Shown: piece by piece, positions 12,884 through 28,448 of the stretch
How the letters are laid out: each line of letters begins with the position of its first letter
How positions within the stretch are numbered: position 1 is the stretch's first letter
NCBI GenBank assembly: GCA_963675515.1
Contig: OY776328.1
Location: 660,001-692,000 of the forward strand
Direction: 5' to 3'
Length of the DNA stretch: 32,000 nt
DNA from: Coprobacillaceae bacterium
Lineage (GTDB): Bacteria; Bacillota_I; Bacilli_A; Erysipelotrichales; Coprobacillaceae
The notes under the pieces: generated by a model
What the model saw: only the letters and a program-made list of their open reading frames with translations
The model's database searches: none
What the model was told of the DNA's origin: nothing
Made by a program: the position numbers and the translations under genes

Positions 12884-14127
12884 TTAACAACGGCATGCAC
12901 CCATTTATCGAACTTGGTTTCAAGCCGGTTAATCTGCTTAGAACCACCGACAACATGCATGTGCTCCAGGAACGGGAAATAATTTTCGATGACAGCAGCG
13001 AATTCGCAGCGACAATGCACGCTTTCATGATCCACTGTGTGAATAGGTATGGTATTGAAGAATTGGAAAAATGGTATTTTGAACAATGGGGTGATCCTAG
13101 AATCACGCTTGGTGAAAAATATGGCAAGTTCTTCAAAGTTTTTGAAACCGCATACGAAACAATTAAAAGAGTTTCCCCTAACACTTCAGTTGGTGGTGCA
13201 GGATTTGGTCGTCTTTACAGTACCTTGGATTTCAGGGAAATCATAGAACTGTGGAAACAAAATTGTCAGCGACCGGACTTCATTTCACTTTATGGATATC
13301 CTTATATGGCAAGAAGCAGTGTGGATTCCCAAAACAGTGACCGGATTCAGGATCCCAAGTTTATAAACAATCACGTATTGATGATGAAAGAGGTTTTGGG
13401 CAAAGCTGATTTTCCTGTCAAGGAATTGTTAGTCACTGAATGGAGTTCCAGTGTTTCTGACTGGAACAGCCTAAATGACAGTGTCTATAAAGGGGCGTTC
13501 ATGTTGAAGACCATAGTTGACAACATCGGCGCTTTGGATTCGATGGGTTATTGGCTTGCGACTGATGCGTTGACCGAGTATTTCGATACAGGTATGCTTT
13601 TGCATGGCGGGAACGGACTGTTAAGCGTAGACGGCATCAAAAAACCGGCGTTTTATGCAATGCAGTTTGCAAGCAAGCTAGGAAACCTGATGCTTGGACG
13701 GAGTGACAATGCGGTTGTCACGGCAAGCGAACGAGGTAATTACTCAATTGTCTGCCACAACTTCAACAGTCCTAATTTCAGATACTATTTGAAGAAAGAA
13801 GATGAGGTGGAAGTCCAAAAACAGTTTCTGCTTTTTGACGAGGCTGAAAACCTGATATTGAATTTCCGTATCGACAATGTCAGAAACGGGAAATATATCG
13901 TCAAATTGAGAGCGCTAAATGAAGACCATGGAAGCGTTCAGGATGAGTGGAGGGAAATGGATTACAGTGAAAATCTCACGCAACAGGATATCCAGTATTT
14001 AAGACAGACAAGTATCCCCAAAATTAGGATATTCGAGAAAAAAGTTGATAACAATACTTTAACTATTGAGACAAAGTTGCGTCCCCACGAAATTCAGTCG
14101 ATACATTTGATCTATCAAATGGAGTAG
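12880..14127 (+). CDS. GH39-like (COG3664, beta-xylosidase-like) domain; probably the continuation of the AraC ORF rather than an independent gene
   Basis: PFIELGFKP, YFEQWGDP (at the position of the GH-A WNEP motif) and LLVTEWSS (TE nucleophile motif). There is no SD or credible start. This frame opens only at 12868, inside the T run. Confidence 0.6.
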   Translation: MINNGMHPFIELGFKPVNLLRTTDNMHVLQEREIIFDDSSEFAATMHAFMIHCVNRYGIEELEKWYFEQWGDPRITLGEKYGKFFKVFETAYETIKRVSPNTSVGGAGFGRLYSTLDFREIIELWKQNCQRPDFISLYGYPYMARSSVDSQNSDRIQDPKFINNHVLMMKEVLGKADFPVKELLVTEWSSSVSDWNSLNDSVYKGAFMLKTIVDNIGALDSMGYWLATDALTEYFDTGMLLHGGNGLLSVDGIKKPAFYAMQFASKLGNLMLGRSDNAVVTASERGNYSIVCHNFNSPNFRYYLKKEDEVEVQKQFLLFDEAENLILNFRIDNVRNGKYIVKLRALNEDHGSVQDEWREMDYSENLTQQDIQYLRQTSIPKIRIFEKKVDNNTLTIETKLRPHEIQSIHLIYQME

Positions 14128-14250
14128 GAAGTATAATGAACAATTGCGCGTTACAGGGTAAAAATATTTTGCGCTAATAGCGATGTTTAAATGATGCATC
14201 CAGACCTGAAATGTGTCATAGCTATGGTGCGGATTTTAAGGAGGAAGATT

Positions 14251-15192
14251 ATGGGTACATATGTTTTTGGTGTTGATGTAGGCGGTACCACTGTTAAACT
14301 TGGACTATTTGATCCATGTGGAGATATGTTGGAAAAATGGGAGATCAACACAAACACCAATAATAACGGGAAATTTATATTGAATGACATTTCCGAGTCA
14401 ATATTCAGTAAGATTGACGAAAGGAAATTGAGGCTTATCGATATTGAAGGAATCGGCATCGGCGTTCCGGGCCCGGTATTAAGCAGCGGGGTTGTCCAAA
14501 AGTGTGTGAATCTCGGCTGGGAGGTTGTTGACGTAAAGGTTGAGATGGAAAATCTTACAGGTTTAAGAGTAGAGGTTGGAAATGATGCCAATGTTGCGGC
14601 ACTAGGGGAGATGTGGCAAGGTGGCGGCAAGGGGTATAAAAACCTGGTCATGGTTACACTTGGAACCGGTGTTGGAGGCGGTGTTGTCGTTGCTGAAAAT
14701 ATAATTGGCGGATCAGATGGTGCGGCAGGAGAAATAGGTCATCTTCTCGCAAATGAGGAAGAAGAGGAATTCTGCACTTGCGGAAATCGCGGGTGTTTGG
14801 AACAATATGCATCGGCTACCGGGATCGTAAGAGTGGCAAATAATCTGCTAGGATGCGAATCCGGGCGTTCAAGCATTTTGGCGAATGACAAAAATATGGA
14901 TGCCAAGTCGATTTTCGAAGCGGCTCGTAAAAATGACAAAGTTGCCAAAGAAGCTGTGGAGACACTGTATCATACATTGGGTAAATCATTGGCCCAGATC
15001 GCATGTGTCTGCAATCCGCAGGTCTTCGTAATAGGTGGGGGCATGTCCAAAGAAGGGGATGTCCTGATCGAAGGGGTAAAAAAATATTATCAACGCTACA
15101 GTTTTCATGCCTCGAGGAACACCTATTTCAAAATAGCGAAATTGGGAAATGATGCGGGAGTCTTTGGAGCGGCGAAGATGATTCTGCAGTAG
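14251..15192 (+). CDS. glcK: ROK family glucokinase
   Basis: FGVDVGGTTVKLG ATP-binding motif and CTCGNRGCLEQYAS ROK zinc motif. Start moved to the ATG at 14251 behind AAGGAGG. Confidence 0.85.
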   Translation: MGTYVFGVDVGGTTVKLGLFDPCGDMLEKWEINTNTNNNGKFILNDISESIFSKIDERKLRLIDIEGIGIGVPGPVLSSGVVQKCVNLGWEVVDVKVEMENLTGLRVEVGNDANVAALGEMWQGGGKGYKNLVMVTLGTGVGGGVVVAENIIGGSDGAAGEIGHLLANEEEEEFCTCGNRGCLEQYASATGIVRVANNLLGCESGRSSILANDKNMDAKSIFEAARKNDKVAKEAVETLYHTLGKSLAQIACVCNPQVFVIGGGMSKEGDVLIEGVKKYYQRYSFHASRNTYFKIAKLGNDAGVFGAAKMILQ

Positions 15193-15819
15193 GAAATATC
15201 AACCGTAGAGATACATATAAATATATTGCCTTCTTAAATCAATTACGTTTTTGACTTTGCGATGCAAATGTGTATTTCGCTAACCTTTAATCAACTGGGA
15301 CATGCCAGCATAAATAACCGTAATTGGCTTTGCAATAGGGAAATTGAATGTCCTTGGAAATACAATTAATTCCAAAAAATTCAAGTAATTCTTACACTCC
15401 ATTTCAAAACTTGACGTTTATATTTATTTCAATGACGTCGATTTTCCTGTGGTAAGCCAATAGTGGTTAAATATTCGCTGATATAACTCTAGGATTTATG
15501 GCGGATGCAAAATATATAATTTTTGAATGATTCGATCAATATTTGCTTCTTCACTTCAAAATAATATTGAAATAGCGGTTGAAAAATATGTGATGCGGGG
15601 ATTGGTGGAAATTGATGTATTGAACGGTAATTATAAGAGGGTTTGTGATGAATACAATAATGGAGTTTTGGAAGAAGGGATTCGCTATCGTTTGTCAGGC
15701 TGAACACAAAAAAGCCAGGGTAATAATTTGCGAACTAAACAAAAAATCAAAATAATCATGTGCCAAATTATGGAATTGGCAGTGTGGAAAAGAGGAGTTT
15801 TTTGGGAGGGTTAAGCTAG

Positions 15820-16596
15820 GTGAAGAAGTATATATTTTTTGATATAGACGGTACGTTGACTGTCAATAAGTATGGTGATGGCGACATCACCGAGGAGACC
15901 AAAAAAACAATCAGTTCACTCCAAAAAAATGGACATTTCGTGGCGATCGCTACTGGAAGGTCTTATTCGATGGCAAAAAAATACGGTGACATGATAGGTG
16001 TCAGTAATTATGTCATAAACGGAGGCTACGGAGTGGTTATTGATGGTGAAATTGTAGATAATGAGCCATTGGACAAAATGTGTTGTATAAAAATTTGCGA
16101 AGAGGCGAAAGACAAGAGACTTGGTGTGGCGGTTGTTGTTGACGATTCGTTGAACTACCATTGCGATGACGATGTTTTCGTTATAAAATCAAAAAACAGT
16201 CTTTGTGCAATGAGTTTGAACAGACATGAAGATGTGGGTTTTTCGGATCTGGAAGAGTATCACAAAATTTACGTTTCTGTCAGCGAAGATGAAGAGCACA
16301 TGTTGGAAACACGCCACTTGATACCTTATATGAGATACACCGACTCGACAATTGTTTTCGAGGGTGCTGACAAATATTACGGTGTTGAAAAAATGATGAA
16401 GATTATTGACGGACCGATTGATCAGATAGTTGTATTTGGCGATGGAAAGAATGATTTGACCATGTTTGAGAAATCGCAGTTATCAATCGCCATGGGCGAT
16501 TCGGTTCCTGAACTTCTGGATGTCGCTGATTTCATTACAAAGAGCAGCAAGGAAGATGGAATCACGTATGCATGTAGCCTTTTCGGGTGGATTTAA
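15820..16596 (+). CDS. Cof-type HAD-IIB family hydrolase (second copy)
   Basis: FFDIDGTLT and FGDGKNDLTMF motifs, GTG start behind GGGAGGG. Confidence 0.85.
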   Translation: MKKYIFFDIDGTLTVNKYGDGDITEETKKTISSLQKNGHFVAIATGRSYSMAKKYGDMIGVSNYVINGGYGVVIDGEIVDNEPLDKMCCIKICEEAKDKRLGVAVVVDDSLNYHCDDDVFVIKSKNSLCAMSLNRHEDVGFSDLEEYHKIYVSVSEDEEHMLETRHLIPYMRYTDSTIVFEGADKYYGVEKMMKIIDGPIDQIVVFGDGKNDLTMFEKSQLSIAMGDSVPELLDVADFITKSSKEDGITYACSLFGWI

Positions 16597-16736
16597 AATA
16601 ATTGAAAACAGCAGCGAGCAATAATTATCATATTAAAACCAATCAGAATATCTTTTATAACAAATTATGTTTTTCAAGTTATTGTTTGATATGCTGTGGA
16701 ATTGTTTTATATTATAGCCAAATAATTTGAAACAAT

Positions 16737-16786
16737 AAAAACTCTTTGTGACTTACCATGAAATCGGTTAATCACAAAGAGTTTTT
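16737..16786. terminator. Bidirectional hairpin (15-bp stem, 20-nt loop)
   Basis: AAAAACTCTTTGTGA (16737-16751) pairs with TCACAAAGAGTTTTT (16772-16786). Confidence 0.4.
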
Positions 16787-17088
16787 CAATGTATGCGAAA
16801 CTTGGTCTTGTTTCATGATGGCTGATCGTTAATGATAATCAAATGTTTTGTAACTCCTATTATAAAGGGGATCTTTTCTCATTTTGGTGCTTTCAATAGT
16901 AGCTTCAAGACAGATATCCCTCTTGTGAAGTGGTGATACCTCCTTTGTCGTGGAGCTAGAACAATTTCTGATGATTTGCTCCAGCACCAAATGGGGAAAT
17001 GTGGAGCCAATCATTATAACGTTTATTCTAAGTAGGTGTTTACATGCGAGTTTGTTATTGGATTAACTCGGTAAAAAATATACAAAAA

Positions 17089-17113
17089 AACGGCTATAAT
17101 AGCCGTTGTTTTC
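17089..17113. terminator. Hairpin terminator, stronger in the minus orientation
   Basis: AACGGCT-ATAAT-AGCCGTT is flanked by A7 on the left (which reads as T7 on the minus strand) and by GTTTTC on the right. Confidence 0.5.
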
Positions 17114-17476
17114 AATATGGGGCGATATCGGTTATCGTTGGCGAACTATTTTCAATTTTCTAATCGTAATTAATGATGTGTTGATTATGAAAATCAATAT
17201 TATTTGCGTTTAGATTTTTGAAAAGTTTATAGATTATTGGATACCAGTTGGAGTAGCTAAATGGGTTCGCAACATTCAAAAGATGGCGATAAAACCAACG
17301 TTTAAAACTATCGTGGCAAGATAGTAGGGCTGAAACTTCTAAGATACACACGTTGCGACTTAGTCAGAGCAGTTATAGAAATGTCGCAGGCAAGTCAACG
17401 TATTAGCTGAAATGCAATTGCTTTGAAAAAAGTAGTGGAGAGTGCTTCTCTCGTTCAATAATCATCTTTTGTACAT

Positions 17477-17506
17477 GAATGATAATATCAAATCTTATTA
17501 TCATTC
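17477..17506. repeat. Perfect 11-bp inverted repeat separated by 8 nt
   Basis: GAATGATAATA (17477-17487) and TATTATCATTC (17496-17506). Confidence 0.6.
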
Positions 17507-17805
17507 CGTTAAAGATTAGAATGGTTTCGAATATAAAGCAATAAACATAAGATTATGTTGTATATTGGCTTTCTAATATTATTAGTCTTATATCACAGTG
17601 AATATTTCTGTGTCGCGGAGCCACCCTGTCCATTCGTTTAGAGCCACCTCTGTCGCTCTATAGAGCATGGGCACGGTGGATCTCAGCTCCTGATAAGTGG
17701 CTCTGAACTGCCGGAATGCTCATCAATATTTGTGACTAAATATTTATTGCAAAAAAACATGTGTGCGTAGTCAATTCTCTAAAAGCAACTTTATTTAAAT
17801 AAATG

Positions 17806-17834
17806 TTGCATAAGTATTTTTGGCAGAGTATAAT
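17806..17834 (+). promoter_or_regulatory. Near-consensus sigma-A promoter for the precursor-peptide gene
   Basis: TTGCAT (17806-17811), exactly 17 nt of spacer, then TATAAT (17829-17834), 26 nt upstream of the ATG. Confidence 0.6.
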
Positions 17835-17859
17835 TGTTACTTAAGGGGGAGGTGATAAC

Positions 17860-17982
17860 ATGAGTGTGAAACTATCAGTTGAAGAAATCGCTGAAATGAA
17901 TAAAGTTGATCAGCTTGATTTTTCTAAAAACGACAAAAATCTTGATGATAGTGGAATGGCAATTTCGCCAAGACTATACTAA
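17860..17982 (+). CDS. 40-aa candidate RiPP precursor peptide (not in the supplied ORF track)
   Basis: The ORF, ATG to TAA, encodes MSVKLSVEEIAEMNKVDQLDFSKNDKNLDDSGMAISPRLY. A GGAGG SD (17848-17852) sits 7 nt before the ATG. A consensus promoter lies upstream, a terminator lies just downstream, and the next gene is a radical SAM/SPASM enzyme. Confidence 0.6.
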   Translation: MSVKLSVEEIAEMNKVDQLDFSKNDKNLDDSGMAISPRLY

Positions 17983-17988
17983 AGAAAA

Positions 17989-18015
17989 AGCTCAACAATC
18001 ATGTTGAGCTTTTTT
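17989..18015 (+). terminator. Intrinsic terminator or attenuator between the precursor and maturase genes
   Basis: AGCTCAACA-ATCA-TGTTGAGCT perfect 9-bp stem followed by TTTTT. Confidence 0.65.
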
Positions 18016-18090
18016 GAATGGAATTTACTATGTTAATAGATTGAAAGGGGAGTATGCTGAGAAATATGTTTTTTCAGTTATGAATTATAT

Positions 18091-19488
18091 ATGAATTATA
18101 GATTAGATAAAAACAAATTGGATAAATTGCAACTCGGAGATAAACTACTTAGTGTCAATTTGGAAAAACTTTATATAACAGAGTATGACATTAATAGATA
18201 TTTGGTAATCAATTCTTTTAAGGATGAATGTCTCATTTTACAAAAAGATATTATAGACGATAATAAGATTCCAGCTGAAATTTGTGGTTTATTATCTACA
18301 CCAAATAAGATGAATAAAGATAGTTGGAACAGTTTTAAAAATGAGTTGGAAAATGATGCTTATGTTGAAAAAGGTAAGAAAGTAATAAATATAATTATAG
18401 CATTGACGTATGCATGTAATTTGAAATGCTCATATTGCTATCAACAATATAATCCTAAATTGAAGAAAGAAACTATATCGGTCGAAAATTTATATAAAAT
18501 TTTTGACGTCATTCGGGAATATAAAACTACCCATCCGGATAAAACAGTTGAAATTGGACTGTTCGGAGGAGAACCCCTTCTAAAAGCAAATGAAGAAATA
18601 ATTGATATGATTTTGAAATTTTGCAAAACAGAATTGATAAAGTTAAACATTGTGACAAATGGTGTGAATTTAGATTATTTTTTAAAGAAAATTATTATTA
18701 ATAGAAATGTCATTCGTTCGATAGCGACTACGATTGATAGTTCAGTTGCAAACGAGACTACAAGAAAATATATAGATGATAGAAAAAATGAAAAAAATAG
18801 TGCATCTTATATCCTTGATTGTTTAAATGTTTTATTAAGTTATAATGTTCCAGTGTCAATTTCTTCAAATATAGACGAGCTTAATATTTGTGATTTGCCA
18901 AAAATGCATAAATTATTACAGGACAACGGATTTATTGATAATGAGAAATTCTCTTGGTATATAGGCAGAGTTGATGATAGGATGTATGAAACTAAGTACC
19001 CTTTTATCATAAGTGATACAGATATCTTATTAGAGTTGGATAAACTTGAAAAGTTCGAAAACAATTGTCATGCAGCTTTTATAAAGACTGTAAAAAATTT
19101 GGTTGATAAATTGGATATGGGTTTTAATCAACAAGAGCGTAAAGGAAAATACAATTATTGTTGGACATCGTCGCCTCTTACTGATGTATTTTACATAGAT
19201 AATGACTTAGATGTATTTAGATGCACATATACCGTTGGTCGTAAAGAATTTGCAATGTATAATCTCAATGAACAAAGCATAAATGATTACAATCCAATAA
19301 ATAGAACATATTTGAATTATGAAAAGTGTCAATCTTGCAACATTGGAGGATATTGTTCAGGTGGTTGCCAATTATCTTTCAAAATGGATAGTGACAAACA
19401 ATGTGAATTTGAAATTAATGCTTTCAATGATTTTTTACATAAAATTTTGATGCCCAAATTGAGAAGTAGAGAAAACGATGTTGTCTAA
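18091..19488 (+). CDS. Radical SAM enzyme with C-terminal SPASM domain (candidate peptide maturase)
   Basis: The radical SAM cluster motif is CNLKCSYC (CX3CX2C). The SPASM motif is CQSCNIGGYCSGGC (CX2CX5CX3C), with additional Cys residues upstream (YCW...FRC) and downstream (KQCEF). About 95 aa of N-terminal extension precede the SAM motif. Confidence 0.9.
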   Translation: MNYRLDKNKLDKLQLGDKLLSVNLEKLYITEYDINRYLVINSFKDECLILQKDIIDDNKIPAEICGLLSTPNKMNKDSWNSFKNELENDAYVEKGKKVINIIIALTYACNLKCSYCYQQYNPKLKKETISVENLYKIFDVIREYKTTHPDKTVEIGLFGGEPLLKANEEIIDMILKFCKTELIKLNIVTNGVNLDYFLKKIIINRNVIRSIATTIDSSVANETTRKYIDDRKNEKNSASYILDCLNVLLSYNVPVSISSNIDELNICDLPKMHKLLQDNGFIDNEKFSWYIGRVDDRMYETKYPFIISDTDILLELDKLEKFENNCHAAFIKTVKNLVDKLDMGFNQQERKGKYNYCWTSSPLTDVFYIDNDLDVFRCTYTVGRKEFAMYNLNEQSINDYNPINRTYLNYEKCQSCNIGGYCSGGCQLSFKMDSDKQCEFEINAFNDFLHKILMPKLRSRENDVV

Positions 19489-20605
19489 AACTTTAAATAA
19501 TACAAGGATTTTATCATTAATAAGTTTATCAAATGGGTTGGTATTCTATGCACCTGTAGCACTTCTATTAAGAACATCTAAAGGAATTACACCTGCTGAA
19601 TTTTTTGCTTTACAAATTATTTTGTATGGTTCGATTTGTATTTTTGAAATACCTTGCGGAGTGATCACAGATTTGATAGGTTACAGGAAAACCATAATAT
19701 TATCAGCTTTCTTTCTATTAATCGCTAGAATAAATTTTCTTTACGCATCTACGTTTATGCTGTTTGCAATTGAGGCAATATTTGAATCCGTTTCTATCAG
19801 CTTTATTTCGGGAACAATGAGTGCTTATCTATATGAAATGTATTCTGGAGATGATTTTGACGTACACATTTCGAAAATTGACAATTTTGGTACTGCTGGT
19901 TTTGTATTTAGTACTATTGCATTCTATTTTTTGTATGCTTACTTTGGCATGTTTGGTTTAGTCTTGCCGACTGTGCTTTCGAGTTTAGGTGCTCTTATAT
20001 TTTCCGTGATGTTATCTGATGTCACTAGAAAGAGAGAATTAGATAAAAAAATATATTTTAAATTTTTTAGGAATTTCAAATTTTGGATTCTTTCATTGTA
20101 CTCAAGTGTTTTTTCACTAGGTTTTGTCGCAATTAATTATTTTTACGTGATTAAACTAAGTTCTTTTAATATTTCAACTAATAATATTACGTTCCTTATT
20201 ATCTCGTATTCCGTAATTCAAATGTTTGTACCTAAATTATTGAGTAGGATAAATAAATATAACTATTCACCTGTTATTCTTTTTGTAATTAGCTTGGCTT
20301 TCTTACTATTGTATTTTAACGAAAATATTTACTTGTCGCTCTTATTTATGGTCACATTGCCATCGCTAATCTATTTGGTCTACTACAAATTTAGTTTGGC
20401 TCAAAATAATTTTATTGATGACATGATGTGGCAAAACAATAGAGCCACACTTTTATCAATCTTTAATATGGGTAGTAACTTCTTATCGATATTCTCGTTG
20501 CTGATCCTGAGCATTTACAATAGTGCCTCAGGACTAATTACATTCGTAGTGGTTGGAATTATATATATGGTGCTTTTTTTAATTTCAATTATATATAAAA
20601 TTTAA
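19478..20605 (+). CDS. Polytopic membrane protein, MFS-like (candidate exporter or immunity protein)
   Basis: About 10-12 hydrophobic segments. GVITDLIGYRKT resembles MFS motif A between TM2 and TM3. The gene overlaps the rSAM gene by 11 nt. Confidence 0.65.
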   Translation: MLSKTLNNTRILSLISLSNGLVFYAPVALLLRTSKGITPAEFFALQIILYGSICIFEIPCGVITDLIGYRKTIILSAFFLLIARINFLYASTFMLFAIEAIFESVSISFISGTMSAYLYEMYSGDDFDVHISKIDNFGTAGFVFSTIAFYFLYAYFGMFGLVLPTVLSSLGALIFSVMLSDVTRKRELDKKIYFKFFRNFKFWILSLYSSVFSLGFVAINYFYVIKLSSFNISTNNITFLIISYSVIQMFVPKLLSRINKYNYSPVILFVISLAFLLLYFNENIYLSLLFMVTLPSLIYLVYYKFSLAQNNFIDDMMWQNNRATLLSIFNMGSNFLSIFSLLILSIYNSASGLITFVVVGIIYMVLFLISIIYKI

Positions 20606-20933
20606 AAACGAATTCATGAATCAACAAGTAATAATAAAATATACTCTTAAGGGGGTATATTAGTTCGTCAAAGATACTTAGCACAAAGATTTGTGTTATG
20701 TACAAAATATTCTTGAATGACCCTATTGTACAAGAAAATCTCTTTTGGTTGCACAAAGACGGTGCTTGATCTGAAATGTAGGAATTGTGATGAATTTTGA
20801 GCGCCTAAATTTAGACATTCACTTCCCTAAATATATTAACCTGAGATATATGAACATTGAAAAAGTGTTTAACATAGCATATATTTTAGAAATTCGATAA
20901 ATAGACAAATCGGGCTATTTATTGAATTAAAAA

Positions 20934-20960
20934 AACGGCCATCATAAGCCGTTATTTTTA
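20934..20960 (-). terminator. Terminator downstream of the tRNA-His pair (also usable from the + strand)
   Basis: AACGGC-N8-GCCGTT stem, flanked by A7 on the left (T7 on the minus strand) and by ATTTTT on the right. Confidence 0.55.
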
Positions 20961-20963
20961 ATT

Positions 20964-21040
20964 TGGGGCGACCGATGGGAATCGAACCCACGAATGCCAG
21001 AGCCACAATCTGGTGTGTTAACCACTTCACCACGATCGCC
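20964..21040 (-). tRNA. tRNA-His (anticodon GUG), copy 1
   Basis: The reverse complement folds as a cloverleaf. The acceptor stem is GCGAUCG/CGGUCGC. The anticodon stem is CCAGA/UCUGG with loop UUGUGGC. The T arm is GUGGG-UUCGAUU-CCCAU. There is an encoded G(-1) opposite C73 (a His identity element) and an encoded CCA. Confidence 0.9.
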
Positions 21041-21067
21041 ATATTAGACTTCATACAATTAATAAAA

Positions 21068-21144
21068 TGGGGCGACCGATGGGAATCGAACCCACGAATG
21101 CCAGAGCCACAATCTGGTGTGTTAACCACTTCACCACGATCGCC
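21068..21144 (-). tRNA. tRNA-His (anticodon GUG), copy 2, identical to copy 1
   Basis: The 77-nt sequence is identical to 20964-21040, with a 27-nt spacer between the copies. Confidence 0.9.
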
Positions 21145-21164
21145 ATTTCTTAACTGCAATGAAT

Positions 21165-21193
21165 AGTATACAAGAAGTCCGGGGTCTTGTAAA
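21165..21193 (-). promoter_or_regulatory. Candidate promoter for the tRNA-His pair
   Basis: On the minus strand: TTTACA (21193-21188), 17-nt spacer, TATACT (21170-21165), about 20 nt upstream of the tRNA 5' end. Confidence 0.35.
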
Positions 21194-21413
21194 GTGTAAA
21201 TTTGATTTTTTGAACTCTTTTTTCCGTGCTCTTATTCCCCGATATGATTGATGTAAATGGTCATTTATGGTTTAAAAACAAATATCGGTTATTTGTATAG
21301 TGAAAAAATTTAAATTGTTGGCTAAAAGTGTAATAAGATGATATATTTAAGTAAATGTCAAGATTGTAAGAAACACTAAAGAGTTAAAAGGGTTGTCAGT
21401 GGAGGTTACCTTA

Positions 21414-23081
21414 ATGAAAACTAAAGTCTATCTTAAACGCGAAAAAAAATCGGTTGCTATTGCGATTTCCGACAAAAACAAGCCGGATTTGACTGGAGAA
21501 ATAATAGCCAATTGGCAAAACCAGTTGAACCTCATTGCCAGGATGTTAAAAGTCCGCTCGGTGCTGATCATGAAGGTGAAATCCGGAGTCATGGAAGTGG
21601 CCGTCAAATCGTCGAATCCCGACAACCCTTACCAGGTTAATGGCAAAAGTTACCTTGGCCATGGCCTGTATTGCGAAACGGTAATGGGCAATGACGAGCT
21701 GCTGCTGATCCGTGACTTGCGGGACGATGATGTCTGGGCCAATGACAAGTCCGGTTTGTTTGAAGCGCGTTCCTATCTTGGGATTCCCATAAAATGGCCC
21801 GATGAGAGTTTCTATGGGACTGTGTGCGTCATCGATGACAAACCGATAGTATTAGATGATAACCATATCGAGGTTTTCAATCAGCTGGCCCGGCTTTTCA
21901 GCCAGGATCTCAAAATCCTGATGCAACAGAAGCAAATTGCCATACTTAATGCGATTCCGGCCGAACAGGTATACACTCGTTCGGAATTCCTGCGGGACAT
22001 TTCTCTGGAGTTCAAAGCACCATTGACGACAATCATCGGCTTGTCCCAGATGGGGGCCAACCTGTCAAAGAAGGATACGATCAAGGACTATTTCAACCAG
22101 ATTGCCAGCGCAGGAAGTTACCTGCTGGAAATCGTCGACGAAGTCAAGGATATTGCCCGGATCGAGACCAATCTGGTCGCACCGGTTGAACAAAGTGTCA
22201 ATATCGAAGACTTTGCCCGGGAAATAGAGGCGCTGTTTGCTTTGAGATTCAAGGAGAAACACCAGGAGTTCAATGTCTCCATCAACAACATCAATCCCAA
22301 GACATACAATTTCGACCGGACGGCCATGAAGCGGATAATTGTCAATATCCTGGAAAATGCCAATATTTATACCAAAGAATACGGAGTCATCAACTGGCGG
22401 ATTTCCAAAAGCACCCAGGAAGGTCAGGAATTCCTGGTCCACCAGATTACCGACAATGGAGCGGGTATCGCACCGGAGCTTATGGAAAAGATATTCCGGC
22501 CGTTTCCCAAGAAAACAAGCGCCGCCTACGATCAGCGCAATTCATTGGGACTTGGCCTTTCGATAACCTATTCGCTGACGAAGTTTCTCGATGGTGAAAT
22601 CCAGGTGTCGTCCCAACAGGGAGAGGGATCATCGTTTGTGATCAGGATACCGGTAAAGCAGGGACTCAAGACCGTCAACCAAAAAAGCGAAGTGGTTGTC
22701 AATCCGAAGTACGCAAACAAAACAGTGCTACTGGTAGAAGACAACAATATCAATGCGATGACCATCAGGCTGATGCTAAACAAGCACAAAATCAAGGTGG
22801 ACTGGGTCGTCAATGGCGCCCGCGCCTTGGAAAACCTGAAAAACAAGCGATACGACCTGGTCCTGATGGATCTGGACATGCCGGTTGTCAACGGTTATGA
22901 GGCAACCCGCCTGATCCGTTCCAATACCGATATCAAGACCAACACGACACCGATAGTGGCAATCGCCTCCAGCGCCTATGTCGAAGAGGTTGAGAAATCG
23001 CTGGCCGCGGGGATGGATGACCATCTGGTCAAACCGTTTGACCAGAAGCAATTGGAATATGTGTTGAATCGCTACCTCTAG
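21414..23081 (+). CDS. Cytoplasmic hybrid sensor kinase-like protein: GAF + degenerate HisKA + HATPase_c + REC
   Basis: GAF-like N-terminus. The DHp H-box reads SEFLRDISLEFKAPLTTIIG, with Leu where the phospho-His should be. N box IVNILENANIYT, G1 DNGAGI, G2 GLGLGLSI. The REC domain has LLVEDNNIN...DLVLMDLDMP...LVKP. Start at the ATG at 21414 behind GGAGG. No TM segments. Confidence 0.85.
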   Translation: MKTKVYLKREKKSVAIAISDKNKPDLTGEIIANWQNQLNLIARMLKVRSVLIMKVKSGVMEVAVKSSNPDNPYQVNGKSYLGHGLYCETVMGNDELLLIRDLRDDDVWANDKSGLFEARSYLGIPIKWPDESFYGTVCVIDDKPIVLDDNHIEVFNQLARLFSQDLKILMQQKQIAILNAIPAEQVYTRSEFLRDISLEFKAPLTTIIGLSQMGANLSKKDTIKDYFNQIASAGSYLLEIVDEVKDIARIETNLVAPVEQSVNIEDFAREIEALFALRFKEKHQEFNVSINNINPKTYNFDRTAMKRIIVNILENANIYTKEYGVINWRISKSTQEGQEFLVHQITDNGAGIAPELMEKIFRPFPKKTSAAYDQRNSLGLGLSITYSLTKFLDGEIQVSSQQGEGSSFVIRIPVKQGLKTVNQKSEVVVNPKYANKTVLLVEDNNINAMTIRLMLNKHKIKVDWVVNGARALENLKNKRYDLVLMDLDMPVVNGYEATRLIRSNTDIKTNTTPIVAIASSAYVEEVEKSLAAGMDDHLVKPFDQKQLEYVLNRYL

Positions 23082-23150: not shown

Positions 23151-23170
23151 GGTTCCATGAGGTGAATAAA

Positions 23171-25402
23171 ATGGATTATGGAAAATTGATCAAAGAGAAA
23201 ATAACGGGCGAATTGTACCAGGGTTTGTTTGGATTGGAGAAGGAAAACGTGCGCGTCGATGGCTTGGGACATCTGGCGTCAACGCCCCATCCCCAGGAGC
23301 TGGGTGACAAGACGACCCATCCTTATATAACCGTCGATTTTGGTGAAAGCCAGATCGAGATGATAACCCCGGTTCAGGAGTCGATCAGGGAGGCCTATGA
23401 TTTCCTATTGAATATTCATGATATTGTGGCTGTCAGTCTCAAGGATGAATATCTGTGGCCCCAATCCCTGCCGCCGCGGTTTGCAAGCGAGGACAATATC
23501 GCGCTGGCTGATTTTCCTGAAGGCAGCGACGGAAAGAACTACCGGGAGCATCTGGAAAAGAATTACGGCAAGAAGAGGCAATTGCTTTCGGGTATCCACT
23601 TCAATTTCAGTTTCGCACGGGATTTTGTGGAAAAACTGTATGATGAATCGTTTGGCGATTTCCAAGACTTCCAGAATGATATCTATCTCCATGTGGTCCG
23701 CAACTTCCACCGCTACAGCTTCCTGCTGCCCTGCCTTTTTGGGGCGGGCAACGCGTATCTGTCGGAGTTCAGGGATCCTGGGGCGAATGACCAGATTATA
23801 AACGGGGATGAGGTTGTGGTTCCTGAAATGATGAGTTTTCGCAACAGCGAATCGGGCTACCAGAATAAGGATAAGTTCTTTGTCGACTACAGTTCACTGG
23901 AAAACTATCATAAGTCGCTCGACGATGCAATTGAAAAAAAGGCGATATCCTATCATCGGGAATTCTATTCCCCGATCCGGCTCAAGGCGACGGTCGGAAA
24001 TGATCTGGCCAGCCAGGTCGATTATCTCGAAGTGAGGGTCATCGACCTCAATCCGTTTGTGCGCAACAATGTGGATATCGATGATCTTTACTATCTACAT
24101 ATGTTCTTGATTTACTGTCTGATAAAGCCTGACATCGAGCTTGACCGGGACAAATACTTCGAATATCAGAATCGTTTCAACAAGGCGGCAAGCAGCCATG
24201 ACTACCATGAAAAGACATTCGGTTTGCACCAGTCAATAAAAAAGGAGCTCTCAAATCTCCAGAGTCTACCTCCGGTATATCACAGGGCCATCGAAAACAT
24301 CGAACGGCGCTGCTCGGGCAATCGCCGCCATATCGACCGCTACAAGGAAGCGGTCAAAGCAAACGGTTATATCGGATTCAACCTGGGCCAGGCAAAATCA
24401 TTCCTCCAGGAATCATTGTCCAGCTACGGTCTGGTTGGCGGGGAACAACTGGAACTATCGACCCAGATCCTGATCAAAGGGGCTTTCAAGTTGGGACTGA
24501 AAGTCGAATATGTCGACAGGACCGACAACTTCATCAAGATTTCCAAGGGCAGTCAATATCAGTACGTCAAGCAGGCGACCAAGACCGCTCTTGACAGCTA
24601 CATGACTTTTTTGATTATGGAAAACAAGATTGTCTCCAAACATGTGCTAAGCCAGGCTGGCTTGAATACCCCGGCTTCGTTGAACTTATCTGACATCTCG
24701 ATGGCCAAATCGAGCTATGACCGGGTAAAAGACAAGAAGATCGTCATCAAGCCCCGATCGACCAACTTCGGTCTGGGCATATCGATATTCGATCAGGGCT
24801 TTGGCCGGGCTGAATTCGAAGAGGCTCTCGATCATGCCTTTGGCGAGGATGACGAGGTATTGATCGAAGACTATGTCGCAGGAAAGGAATACCGTTTCCT
24901 GGTCATCGGCGACCAGGTGGTCGGGGTGTTGCATCGCAAAAACGCCCACGTGACCGGTAACGGCAAGTCAAGCGTCCAGGAGCTTATCGCCCGTGAAAAT
25001 GAGAACCCGTTGCGCGGGGAGAACTACCGGAAACCATTGCAAAAAATCAAGGTCGGACCGATTGAGGAACAGGTTCTCTCATCGCAAGGACTGACAACAA
25101 TAAGCATCCCAATGGAGGGGGTGGAGGTCGTCCTGCGCGAGAATTCGAACATCTCGACTGGAGGTGTCTCCATCGATTTTACCGATGATGTCCTCGACTT
25201 CCATAAGGAAGTCGCAATCAAGGCGGCCAAGGCGGCGGGAGCCAGGATATGCGGGGTGGACATGATCATACCGGATCTTGAAAGTGATGATTACAGCATC
25301 ATCGAGATCAATTTCAATCCGGCCATCCATATCCACAACTACCCATACCGGGGTGAAAACCGGAAAGTTGAAGAACATCTGCTTGAAGTGCTTGGTTTTT
25401 GA
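23171..25402 (+). CDS. gshF: Bifunctional glutamate--cysteine ligase / glutathione synthetase (GshF/GshAB type)
   Basis: About 745 aa. The N-terminal gamma-GCS domain (GLEKENVRVD..., QIEMITP, LLSGIHFNFS) is fused to a C-terminal ATP-grasp domain (KIVIKPRSTNFGLGI..., EINFNP). The ATG at 23171 sits behind GAGGTG; the listed GTG at 23162 is an alternative start. Confidence 0.85.
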   Translation: MDYGKLIKEKITGELYQGLFGLEKENVRVDGLGHLASTPHPQELGDKTTHPYITVDFGESQIEMITPVQESIREAYDFLLNIHDIVAVSLKDEYLWPQSLPPRFASEDNIALADFPEGSDGKNYREHLEKNYGKKRQLLSGIHFNFSFARDFVEKLYDESFGDFQDFQNDIYLHVVRNFHRYSFLLPCLFGAGNAYLSEFRDPGANDQIINGDEVVVPEMMSFRNSESGYQNKDKFFVDYSSLENYHKSLDDAIEKKAISYHREFYSPIRLKATVGNDLASQVDYLEVRVIDLNPFVRNNVDIDDLYYLHMFLIYCLIKPDIELDRDKYFEYQNRFNKAASSHDYHEKTFGLHQSIKKELSNLQSLPPVYHRAIENIERRCSGNRRHIDRYKEAVKANGYIGFNLGQAKSFLQESLSSYGLVGGEQLELSTQILIKGAFKLGLKVEYVDRTDNFIKISKGSQYQYVKQATKTALDSYMTFLIMENKIVSKHVLSQAGLNTPASLNLSDISMAKSSYDRVKDKKIVIKPRSTNFGLGISIFDQGFGRAEFEEALDHAFGEDDEVLIEDYVAGKEYRFLVIGDQVVGVLHRKNAHVTGNGKSSVQELIARENENPLRGENYRKPLQKIKVGPIEEQVLSSQGLTTISIPMEGVEVVLRENSNISTGGVSIDFTDDVLDFHKEVAIKAAKAAGARICGVDMIIPDLESDDYSIIEINFNPAIHIHNYPYRGENRKVEEHLLEVLGF

Positions 25403-27080: not shown

Positions 27081-28448
27081 ATGAGAGTCGGCTTGAAGAC
27101 CGATTCCCGTCAGGTCAAGCCAGGGGATACTTTTATCGCCCTGAAAGGGCCGGTCACAGATGGTCACGATTATGTCGATGTTGCCATAAAAAACGGGGCA
27201 GTCAAGGTCATTGTCGAACGGGGCCAATACCCGGTGGAGGTTGAGTTGGTCGAAGACACCCGGGAATATTTCAGGAAATACCTGGTGGAAAACTACTATC
27301 CTTATATCAAGAAGATGAAACTGGTTGGGATTACGGGTACCAACGGGAAGACCAGCATCGGATTCATGGCTTTCGAAATGCTTAAAAACCAGGGTATCAA
27401 AGCCGGCTATATCGGAACCATCGGTTTCCACCTTGGGGATGATAGTCGACCATTGAACAATACGACTCCCGATCTCGATGTCCTTTACAACCTGCTTCTT
27501 GAATGCGCCGATGCCTCTTGTGAGGCGGTGATTATGGAAGTGTCTTCACATGCGCTGGCATATGGACGGGTTTTTGGCTTGGAGTTCGATATCGTGGCCT
27601 TCACCAATCTGACCCAGGACCATCTTGATTTCCATGGCACCATGGAAAACTACCTGGCAACAAAACAGCAGCTGTTCAAGAAGACCCGGGGGGGAAAGGT
27701 CGCCATCATCAACGGTGACGATCCTTACGGGAAGGAGTTCGTTTTCCCGGAAAACCGCAACATAATGATCAAAAGAGAAGGCGGGGATGTTTCAATCGAC
27801 GCTTACACCATCGAGCATACCCATACCAACCTGGAATTCTCGTATCTGGACAAATCGTATCATACGACAATCAACCTGATTGGCAAGTACAACATCTACA
27901 ACTATCTTACAAGTCTGATGATAGTGGTTTATCTGGGCTGTGGCATCGATGATGTCCTGGCAAAAAGCGATCTTGTCCAGGCTCCGACCGGACGGATGTC
28001 TTATCTTAAAAAGGGGACAAATTCGATTTTCATCGACTATGCCCATACGCCTGACGCCATTGAAAATGTCGCCAAGACGATCAAGGAAACGACAGCGCGC
28101 AAGATAGTGACAATCATTGGATGCGGGGGCAACCGTGACAAGTCCAAACGTTCGTTGATGGCGGCGAGTGCCTGCAGATACTCGGACCTGGCCATCTTCA
28201 CCAACGACAACCCTCGAAATGAGGACCCTGATGAGATCATCAACGATATGACCAGGGATCTTGAATATGGCAATTACATCGTGATCAAGGATCGCGCAAC
28301 GGCCATCCGCCATGGCATCGACCAGCTCGAGGACAATGATGTACTGCTCGTTCTAGGCAAGGGACACGAGAACTACCAGCTCATCAACGGCGAGAAATTC
28401 CATTTCAGTGATTTCGAGGAAGTGGAAAACTACCTCAAGGACAATTGA
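27081..28448 (+). CDS. murE: UDP-N-acetylmuramoyl-L-alanyl-D-glutamate--2,6-diaminopimelate ligase (MurE)
   Basis: DSRQVKPGDTFIALKG, the P-loop GITGTNGKTS, and the Mur ligase C-terminal domain with a DNPR motif (FTNDNPRNEDP), which is associated with meso-DAP specificity. The ATG directly abuts the previous TAG. Confidence 0.85.
   Translation: MRVGLKTDSRQVKPGDTFIALKGPVTDGHDYVDVAIKNGAVKVIVERGQYPVEVELVEDTREYFRKYLVENYYPYIKKMKLVGITGTNGKTSIGFMAFEMLKNQGIKAGYIGTIGFHLGDDSRPLNNTTPDLDVLYNLLLECADASCEAVIMEVSSHALAYGRVFGLEFDIVAFTNLTQDHLDFHGTMENYLATKQQLFKKTRGGKVAIINGDDPYGKEFVFPENRNIMIKREGGDVSIDAYTIEHTHTNLEFSYLDKSYHTTINLIGKYNIYNYLTSLMIVVYLGCGIDDVLAKSDLVQAPTGRMSYLKKGTNSIFIDYAHTPDAIENVAKTIKETTARKIVTIIGCGGNRDKSKRSLMAASACRYSDLAIFTNDNPRNEDPDEIINDMTRDLEYGNYIVIKDRATAIRHGIDQLEDNDVLLVLGKGHENYQLINGEKFHFSDFEEVENYLKDN

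Follow-up and report, generated by a model that had tools for sequence, protein, structure and literature searches.

Peptides made by the ribosome and modified after translation (RiPPs) that are matured by radical S-adenosylmethionine (SAM) enzymes, or RaS-RiPPs, include the ryptides, whose operon consists of genes for the peptide, for an enzyme of the radical SAM type, and for a transporter (PMC12445099). In the RRR subfamily of Streptococcus suis, the enzyme RrrB forms a C-terminal Arg-Tyr carbon-carbon (C-C) crosslink in a 41-mer precursor (PMC9389541); substrates shortened at the N-terminus are still accepted, but exchanges of Arg for Lys or of Tyr for Phe are not (PMC7670169). Ryptides have no known function (PMC13361665). 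Their chemistry is known solely from the in vitro and heterologous reaction of one streptococcal enzyme. Here, we describe a three-gene cassette from a Coprobacillaceae bacterium, located in a 32,000-nucleotide (nt) stretch of contig OY776328.1 (GenBank assembly GCA_963675515.1, positions 660,001 to 692,000 of the forward strand; hereafter, the window). It encodes a 40-residue precursor peptide, a 465-residue radical SAM/SPASM maturase, and a transporter of the major facilitator superfamily (MFS), and is probably a compact ryptide-type RaS-RiPP cassette of a wider 'R-x-Y' family. Judged by homology, the cluster represents a diverged branch within the ryptide family, not a new class, and is predicted to work like a ryptide system. 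An earlier description by a model that saw the letters without database searches (the sequence-only reading) had called the cluster unclassified and its precursor a member of no known family. The comparison does not support this view: enzyme, leader, C-terminal Arg-x-Tyr, and operon layout all match the ryptide (RRR) RaS-RiPP family characterized in S. suis (PMC9389541, PMC7670169).

The NCBIfam model that the maturase matches best, NF040899 (titled 'radical SAM/SPASM ryptide class RiPP maturase'), scores 391.7 bits, with residues 1-461 aligned to positions 1-459 of the 464-position model; the second-best family reaches 84 bits. The protein is also homologous over its full length, at 38-40% identity, to the S. 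suis RrrB-type and Staphylococcus pseudintermedius proteins that are named ryptide maturases. On NF040899, S. suis RrrB scores 958 bits, the S. pseudintermedius enzyme 868, a Lactococcus lactis relative 490, the closest relatives of the window enzyme (those with PRLY cores, see below) 391-412, and Lachnospiraceae and other relatives 230-390. The window enzyme is therefore a member of a broader family that surrounds the ryptide maturases, and it falls outside the narrow streptococcal/staphylococcal equivalog. This broader family is small and well delimited: approximately 96 clusters at 90% identity are found with E < 1e-50, beyond which there is a sharp drop, and in a set of 1.84 billion proteins just 56 representatives (50% identity) have E <= 1e-30.

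Catalytic cysteines are conserved throughout. Across 82 homologues, the CX3CX2C motif (C109/C113/C116) is invariant, and each of the seven SPASM cysteines (C357, C378, C413-x2-C416-x5-C422-x3-C426, and C438) is either invariant or retained in at least 90%. Hidden Markov model (HMM) searches identified the radical SAM domain (Radical_SAM, PF04055, 48.5 bits, together with Fer4_12), but the Pfam SPASM model gave no match at E <= 1, nor did PqqD or other RiPP recognition element (RRE) models from Pfam (E <= 1) or NCBIfam. An AlphaFold2 model built with 82 homologues is confident (pLDDT 93.7, pTM 0.90) and has its best PDB matches in the RiPP maturases CteB, SuiB, and TigE, as well as in anaerobic sulfatase-maturating enzymes (anSMEs). 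Its fold agrees with that of CteB, anSME, and SuiB, all of them SPASM enzymes. Its N-terminus is modelled with high pLDDT as strands 28-31, 36-41, and 46-51, followed by helices 52-56, 62-68, and 76-87. Structural alignments with the RRE-bearing CteB and SuiB cover the whole maturase (approximately 470 columns, compared with approximately 400 for anSME). As modelled, residues 1-95 are consistent with an RRE, though no RRE HMM matches them.

The precursor contains a single Arg (R38) and a single Tyr (Y40), both located in its core, ISPRLY, and the 40-residue peptide matches no family in Pfam or NCBIfam. Contrary to its description as hidden, the ORF does not escape gene callers: an identical product has already been recorded for the NCBI/ENA assembly. 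For comparison, loci of maturase homologues were taken from public assemblies, and the small open reading frames (ORFs) beside the enzyme were read and aligned. The sequence-only reading had allowed that homologues might have no such ORF upstream; in most loci with readable flanks, however, an ORF of 34-70 residues stands beside the enzyme, nearly always directly upstream (downstream in L037), and approximately 30 homologous loci carry such a precursor-like ORF. In a few distant or short-flank loci, no small ORF was found beside the enzyme. The precursor-bearing loci come from streptococci, staphylococci, Lactococcus, Lachnospiraceae, Faecalibacterium, Fusobacterium, Erysipelotrichaceae, Bdellovibrionales, Nitrospirae, Elusimicrobia, and an archaeal metagenome-assembled genome (MAG). 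Their precursors have in common the leader motif x-[F/L]-[S/T]-x-[E/D]-E-[L/I]-x-x-M and, at the C-terminus or close to it, R-[R/L/K]-Y, in which Arg(-2) and Tyr are the sole invariant core residues across the family. This pattern fits the intolerance of RrrB to Arg-to-Lys and Tyr-to-Phe exchanges (PMC7670169).

Within this common frame, the cores vary by lineage. Those of Streptococcus, Staphylococcus, and Amygdalobacter end in T/I-RRRY, and those of Lachnospiraceae, Butyrivibrio, Fusobacterium, Oscillospiraceae, Bdellovibrionales, and Nitrospirae in HRRY, NRRY, ARRY, PRRY, or GRRY. Faecalibacterium has HRLY, L. lactis VRLY, a Methanomethylophilaceae MAG GRLY, and an Elusimicrobia MAG IRKY, and a Clostridia clade carries short followers (HRRYSVTALS and similar). 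The closest relatives of the window enzyme (loci L001, L002, and L031; 60-63% enzyme identity) have HPRLY cores and keep the peptide-radical SAM-MFS gene order. When the enzymes are placed on a neighbour-joining tree, the PRLY loci group together in a clade distinct from that of the RRRY loci, and R-L-Y cores arise independently within R-R-Y clades (e.g., the HRLY of Faecalibacterium among HRRY loci).

Side by side with the S. suis ryptide cluster (rrrA-rrrB-transporter), the window shows the same order of precursor, radical SAM/SPASM enzyme, and overlapping MFS gene, and the RiPP architecture proposed from the letters is correct. The precursors are of similar length (40 residues in the window, 41-42 in S. 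suis), both carry the leader motif x-F/L-S/T-x-E-E-L/I-x-x-M, a C-terminal Tyr, and Arg(-2), and the full-length homologous enzymes have identical cysteine patterns. The two systems nevertheless differ in several respects. The window enzyme scores 392 bits on NF040899, compared with 958 for S. suis. An Rgg gene is located directly upstream of the cluster in S. suis and S. pseudintermedius, and a 308-316-residue regulator-like gene occupies this position in L001 and L002 (the L002 copy matches RNPP_C weakly), whereas the window has no adjacent Rgg/SHP regulator. A hairpin separates the precursor and enzyme genes, which lie 108 nt apart in the window, while the gap in S. suis is just 15 nt. The MFS protein is of another lineage: it shows 49% identity to its counterparts in L001 and L002, 35-37% to those of the Lachnospiraceae and Faecalibacterium loci, and no significant BLASTP similarity to the S. 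suis-type MFS. It falls into the MFS lineage found at Lachnospiraceae, Faecalibacterium, and Erysipelotrichaceae loci. Finally, the host is Erysipelotrichales-like rather than a Streptococcus. We grade the locus as a variant of the ryptide system because its enzyme scores below the curated NF040899 cut-off and the RRR motif, the Rgg/SHP linkage, and an orthologous transporter are all missing. Coordinates of the features are collected in Table 1.

Table 1. Features of the cassette and its surroundings, numbered from the first position of the window.
Feature	Position	Strand	Description
Left copy of 42-nt imperfect direct repeat	17084..17125	+	Terminator-like hairpin and TGGGGCGA, first bases of tRNA-His 3' end; putative att-like boundary
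Promoter-like site TTGCAT-17 nt-TATAAT	17806..17834	+	TTGCAT 17806-17811, TATAAT 17829-17834; read from the sequence, putative function
Shine-Dalgarno sequence GGGGGAGGTG	17845..17854	+	Core GGAGG 17848-17852, 7 nt 5' of precursor ATG
Precursor peptide gene	17860..17982	+	40 codons, product MSVKLSVEEIAEMNKVDQLDFSKNDKNLDDSGMAISPRLY; leader L-S-V-E-E-I-A-E-M, core end P-R-L-Y
Intrinsic terminator/attenuator hairpin and U-tract	17984..18015	+	GC core 17990-17997 / 18002-18009
Unusual translation-initiation region of maturase gene	18044..18101	+	Read from the letters
Radical SAM/SPASM peptide maturase gene, ryptide-maturase-like	18091..19488	+	465 aa; N-terminal beta3-alpha3 (RRE-like) domain, residues 1-95
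MFS transporter gene, presumed exporter	19478..20605	+	375 aa; PF07690 52.6 bits; 11-nt overlap with maturase gene
Right copy of direct repeat	20929..20971	+	Overlaps terminator and tRNA-His 3' end
Two tRNA-His (GTG) genes	20964-21039 and 21068-21143	-	Chromosomal site adjoining the island

Other RaS-RiPP systems resemble the cassette less closely. Streptide biosynthesis (StrA/StrB/StrC) and SuiB share with it a short precursor, a radical SAM/SPASM enzyme whose N-terminal domain is of RRE type (putatively so in the window), and a transporter; they yield a Lys-Trp C-C cyclophane, in which an aliphatic side chain is joined to an aromatic ring, as predicted for the window peptide. SuiB is among the best structural matches of the maturase, but at 13-14% identity in the structural alignment, and it joins other residues. 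The triceptide enzymes (XyeB, GrrB, and FxsB; Omega1-X2-X3) likewise form a three-residue cyclophane with a radical SAM/SPASM enzyme, a likeness that depends on the pairing of Arg38 with Tyr40. The triceptide bond links an aromatic first residue to the beta-carbon of residue 3 (PMC10114670, PMC10373908). In the window, by contrast, the aliphatic residue comes first, and the FxsB and YhhB models reach 42-45 bits on its enzyme. PqqE/PqqA (Glu-Tyr) and MftC/MftA (C-terminal Val-Tyr) are further radical SAM/SPASM systems acting on a Tyr of a short precursor, and MftA also ends in Tyr; however, these enzymes are not among the best family matches of the window enzyme, and their products are cofactors rather than exported peptides. 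The RREs of the pyrroloquinoline quinone (PQQ) and mycofactocin pathways are separate proteins, PqqD and MftB.

By analogy with RrrB, an Arg38-Tyr40 C-C crosslink with a mass change of -2 Da is likely in the window peptide. This pair is predicted to be joined because it comprises the sole Arg and sole Tyr, which occupy the two invariant positions of the family. For the window peptide, we infer the crosslink, the joined atoms, expression, export, and any biological activity alike. In the proposed sequence of events, the precursor would be transcribed from a sigma-70-like promoter, and the hairpin after its gene would limit read-through and favour precursor over enzyme, as its anatomy and the hairpins of relatives suggest. 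The maturase would bind the leader motif L/F-S/T-x-E-E-I/L-x-x-M, probably via its RRE-like domain. SAM would be cleaved at the CX3CX2C cluster, and the 5'-deoxyadenosyl radical would abstract a hydrogen from the Arg38 side chain; the Arg38 carbon would couple to the Tyr40 ring carbon ortho to the hydroxyl, with the auxiliary SPASM cluster accepting the electron. The resulting Arg-Leu-Tyr macrocycle, lighter by 2 Da, would be exported by the MFS protein, its leader being cut off by a protease encoded outside the island.

A bolder proposal, which we put forward tentatively and regard as doubtful on balance, is that the macrocycle of the R-L-Y branch is an undescribed one, a three-residue Arg-Leu-Tyr cyclophane with 13 or 14 members, that the minimal substrate of the family is R-x-Y rather than RRR, and that the cassette is a regulator-free 3.85-kb mobile unit inserted at tRNA-His. 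The ring is predicted to be contracted because the sole Arg stands two residues before Tyr and Pro occupies position -3, while the S. suis ryptide was reported to be 16-membered. By atom count, a 16-membered ring fits a bond from the gamma-carbon of Arg(-3) to C3 of Tyr only; an Arg(-2)-Tyr ring has 13 (gamma) or 14 (delta) atoms. If the proposal holds, it would show that RaS-RiPP cassettes pass from one gut Firmicute to another as nothing more than a set of three genes.

The signals around the precursor gene had been read as hallmarks of real expression. The TTGCAT-17 nt-TATAAT site is present, and the block formed by its -10 element and the Shine-Dalgarno (SD) sequence aligns with the same upstream positions in L001 and L002, where the -10 element stands opposite AGTATTAT and the SD sequence is conserved as GGGGGGTG / GGAGGTG. 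Taken alone, however, the match is weak evidence for a promoter, as such sites are not enriched over chance in this AT-rich DNA (23 observed, 25.5 expected from shuffles); this one was left unlisted by a promoter scan because its -35 element matches at 3/6 positions only. The claim that the ORF has its own terminator fares better. The hairpin has a folding energy (dG) of -18.2 kcal/mol and a z-score of -5.9, and none of 200 shuffles (0/200) folds equally well; hairpins of other sequence are found at the equivalent position in L001 and L002 (dG -19.0 and -15.9). The 40-codon ORF, its GGAGG, the hairpin, the 465-residue enzyme with its CX3CX2C and SPASM cysteines, and the 11-nt overlap of the MFS gene all lie exactly where the sequence-only reading had put them.

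Initiation of the maturase gene is less orthodox. Mini-ORFs at 18054-18083 (MLRNMFFQL*) and 18080-18094 (MNYI*) are linked via ATGA overlaps to the ATG at 18091, and the region contains an 11-nt tandem duplication, ATGAATTATAT|ATGAATTATAG. The N-terminus of protein P0003 (MNYVLEKNKL) confirms the start at 18091 (MNY...). In L001, the maturase gene has an ordinary SD sequence 7 nt before its ATG. The arrangement in the window could represent coupled, attenuated translation or else incipient decay.

The cassette is located in a low-GC stretch (27-30%, compared with 40-49% in the flanks) that is enclosed by the direct repeats, whose copies are approximately 84% identical, with one indel, and spaced 3846 nt apart. 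The 3.85-kb island thus delimited holds the three genes and approximately 730 nt of non-coding DNA upstream of the precursor. The repeats look like att sites left by integration at tRNA-His, although the island is devoid of an integrase; tblastn with the L001 integrase against the whole window found no remnant of one. In L001 itself, the homologous cluster has a phage-type integrase fragment a few kb upstream. Phage carriage was considered and set aside, since a scan of IMG/VR with the family alignment gave generic radical SAM-core matches only and no family member. Between the HAD hydrolase gene and the precursor, the approximately 1.26 kb (16597-17860) read in six frames contains stop-riddled frames only, without an ORF of more than 63 residues, and shows no Rfam, regulator, or integrase similarity. 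An Rfam scan of positions 15000-22000 for non-coding RNA (E <= 0.1) found two tRNAs only.

Two related genomes, with MurE proteins 73% and 82% identical to that of the window, keep both tRNA-His genes but are without the cassette, and the sequence beside their tRNA genes differs. Downstream synteny (hybrid kinase, GshF, CHAD, phosphatase, MurE, and P-type ATPase) is kept in both. Because relatives lacking the cassette retain the tRNAs and the synteny, the cassette is an accessory island at a tRNA-His hot spot. The segment between the HAD hydrolase/oxidoreductase genes and the tRNA-His pair varies among related genomes (L084 1591-4276, L085 2430-4332, window 15820-21393): L084 has cold-shock and MIF-like genes there, L085 is nearly empty, and the window has the ryptide-like island. 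Just past the tRNA-His pair lie a hybrid histidine kinase-receiver gene (21393-23081) and a GshF-type glutamate-cysteine ligase/ATP-grasp gene (23162-25402), which are placed outside the cassette because they are conserved in relatives without the island.

A second public assembly of this DNA, L007 (CAXXSL010000001.1), was compared with window positions 14111-19576; along these 5.5 kb it shows 24 indels and not a single substitution. Its calls, a 49-residue peptide together with 56- and 171-residue enzyme fragments, were considered as a decayed copy in a sister strain; since the differences consist of indels only, the frameshifted peptide and split maturase are attributed to long-read sequencing errors and not to pseudogenes. 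L007 is labelled 'Anaerohalosphaeraceae bacterium', which raised the idea that a Firmicute cassette had moved into a Planctomycete. This was rejected because of the affinity of MurE (27081-28448) to Erysipelotrichales, its closest named proteins being those of Faecalibacillus, Thomasclavelia, and 'Bacilli bacterium' (54-55% identity). The Planctomycete label is therefore doubtful, and the host is probably an Erysipelotrichales-like member of the Bacillota. The closest taxon-labelled PRLY-type cluster belongs to an Erysipelotrichaceae MAG (L031).

Several points weigh against assigning the cassette to the ryptide type. The curated equivalog cut-off of NF040899 is 600 bits, and because the window enzyme scores below it (391.7 bits), functional equivalence to ryptide maturases is not guaranteed. 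The core reads PRLY instead of RRRY, which places Leu inside the ring and Pro at -3. The crosslinked Arg carbon of the characterized product is itself reported differently, as the gamma-carbon in a 16-membered ring (PMC9389541) or as the delta-carbon, 'adjacent to a heteroatom' (PMC7670169); if the characterized crosslink uses the first Arg of RRRY, the PRLY peptide, with Pro at that position, would form a smaller ring and not the same one. The maturase gene is without a well-spaced SD sequence, an SD-like AAAGGGGAG lying 38 nt 5' of its start. No protease gene is present in the cassette or island. In agreement with the sequence-only reading, no Rgg/RNPP regulator or remnant of one turned up either: four regulators encoded at homologous loci, used as tblastn queries on the entire window, gave a best E of 0.57. 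Finally, mature ryptide has so far gone undetected in any native producer (PMC12445099).

The last of these points leads to the most serious competitor, namely that the cassette is silent or decaying, an island gained horizontally without its regulator and no longer, or never, productively expressed in this host. Precedent exists in Streptococcus thermophilus, where 264 of 265 strains retain the transporter only and the single complete operon gave no detectable product; an attempt to detect the product in strain CIRM30 failed (PMC12445099). The absence of an Rgg/RNPP gene, which L001, L002, S. suis, and S. pseudintermedius all carry directly upstream, points in the same direction, as do the non-coding DNA upstream of the precursor, the poorly served enzyme start with its 11-nt duplication, and the loss of any integrase. 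Yet all three ORFs are intact and of full length, every catalytic cysteine and the R-x-Y core are kept, the SD sequence, -10 element, and hairpin are preserved relative to L001 and L002, and the frameshifts of the second assembly (0 mismatches, 24 gaps) are sequencing errors. Decay thus appears unlikely, and a working ryptide-type cassette remains the preferred reading.

A somewhat less credible alternative keeps the family but changes the chemistry: in the R-L-Y branch, the C-terminal Tyr or Arg would receive a modification other than the Arg-Tyr C-C bond. The terminal Tyr might be oxidatively decarboxylated and crosslinked as by MftC (-46 Da), or the enzyme might install an ether or another kind of crosslink, or act as an epimerase. 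A C-terminal Tyr is the substrate in mycofactocin biosynthesis as well, and an enzyme 38-40% identical to RrrB-type proteins and below the equivalog cut-off might have diverged in function. RaS enzymes of similar fold in the streptococcal network are known to catalyze very different reactions (PMC9389541). However, Arg(-2) and Tyr are the sole invariant core residues across the family, RRRY precursors included, which is what a shared Arg-Tyr reaction predicts, and the switch between Arg and Leu at the middle residue within single enzyme clades argues against a change of chemistry linked to Leu. Moreover, no mycofactocin-type (MftC) model is found among the 25 best NCBIfam families of the maturase, whose neighbours are the precursor and MFS genes only. 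We consider such a departure improbable, and Arg-Tyr crosslinking is retained as the expected reaction. That the enzyme is instead an anSME or other non-RiPP SPASM protein beside a fortuitous small ORF is scarcely credible: anSMEs do appear among its structural matches (TM approximately 0.55-0.70) and as weak NCBIfam and PDB sequence matches, but the sulfatase-maturase model TIGR03942 gives 52.6 bits (cut-off 349) compared with 391.7 for the ryptide model, so that the clustering with sulfatase maturases entertained in the sequence-only reading did not materialize, the window contains no sulfatase gene, anSMEs lack the N-terminal 95-residue domain, and co-conservation of the small ORF with the enzyme across phyla effectively refutes the idea.

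The finding refines a known class and opens no new one; its main value is comparative. With the window locus and its approximately 30 relatives, the family extends well past Rgg-controlled streptococcal clusters into gut Clostridia, Erysipelotrichales, Lactococcus, and even non-Firmicute and archaeal MAGs. The reduction of the conserved core to Arg-x-Tyr yields a simple prediction of the joined residues, and the cores RRRY, HRRY, HRLY, VRLY, PRLY, and IRKY constitute a natural panel of variants for studies of substrate scope. The window cassette itself would represent a regulator-free, mobile example, one whose expression may not depend on a quorum-sensing switch.

Variation beyond the core was also observed. 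In Clostridia loci L011, L021, L027, L030, and L036, a follower of 4-6 residues comes after R-R-Y in the precursor, and in this sub-clade a 540-590-residue protein is encoded downstream instead of an MFS transporter, which suggests a different export or processing route. The L. lactis locus (L151/L152, enzyme P0024) encodes a precursor ending in SPVRLY with an MFS gene downstream; here, a Lon/PDZ protease gene is the direct upstream neighbour, and an Rgg_C gene is located not upstream but approximately 2.3 kb downstream. The L. lactis family enzyme is named by NCBI merely as a 'radical SAM/SPASM domain-containing protein'.

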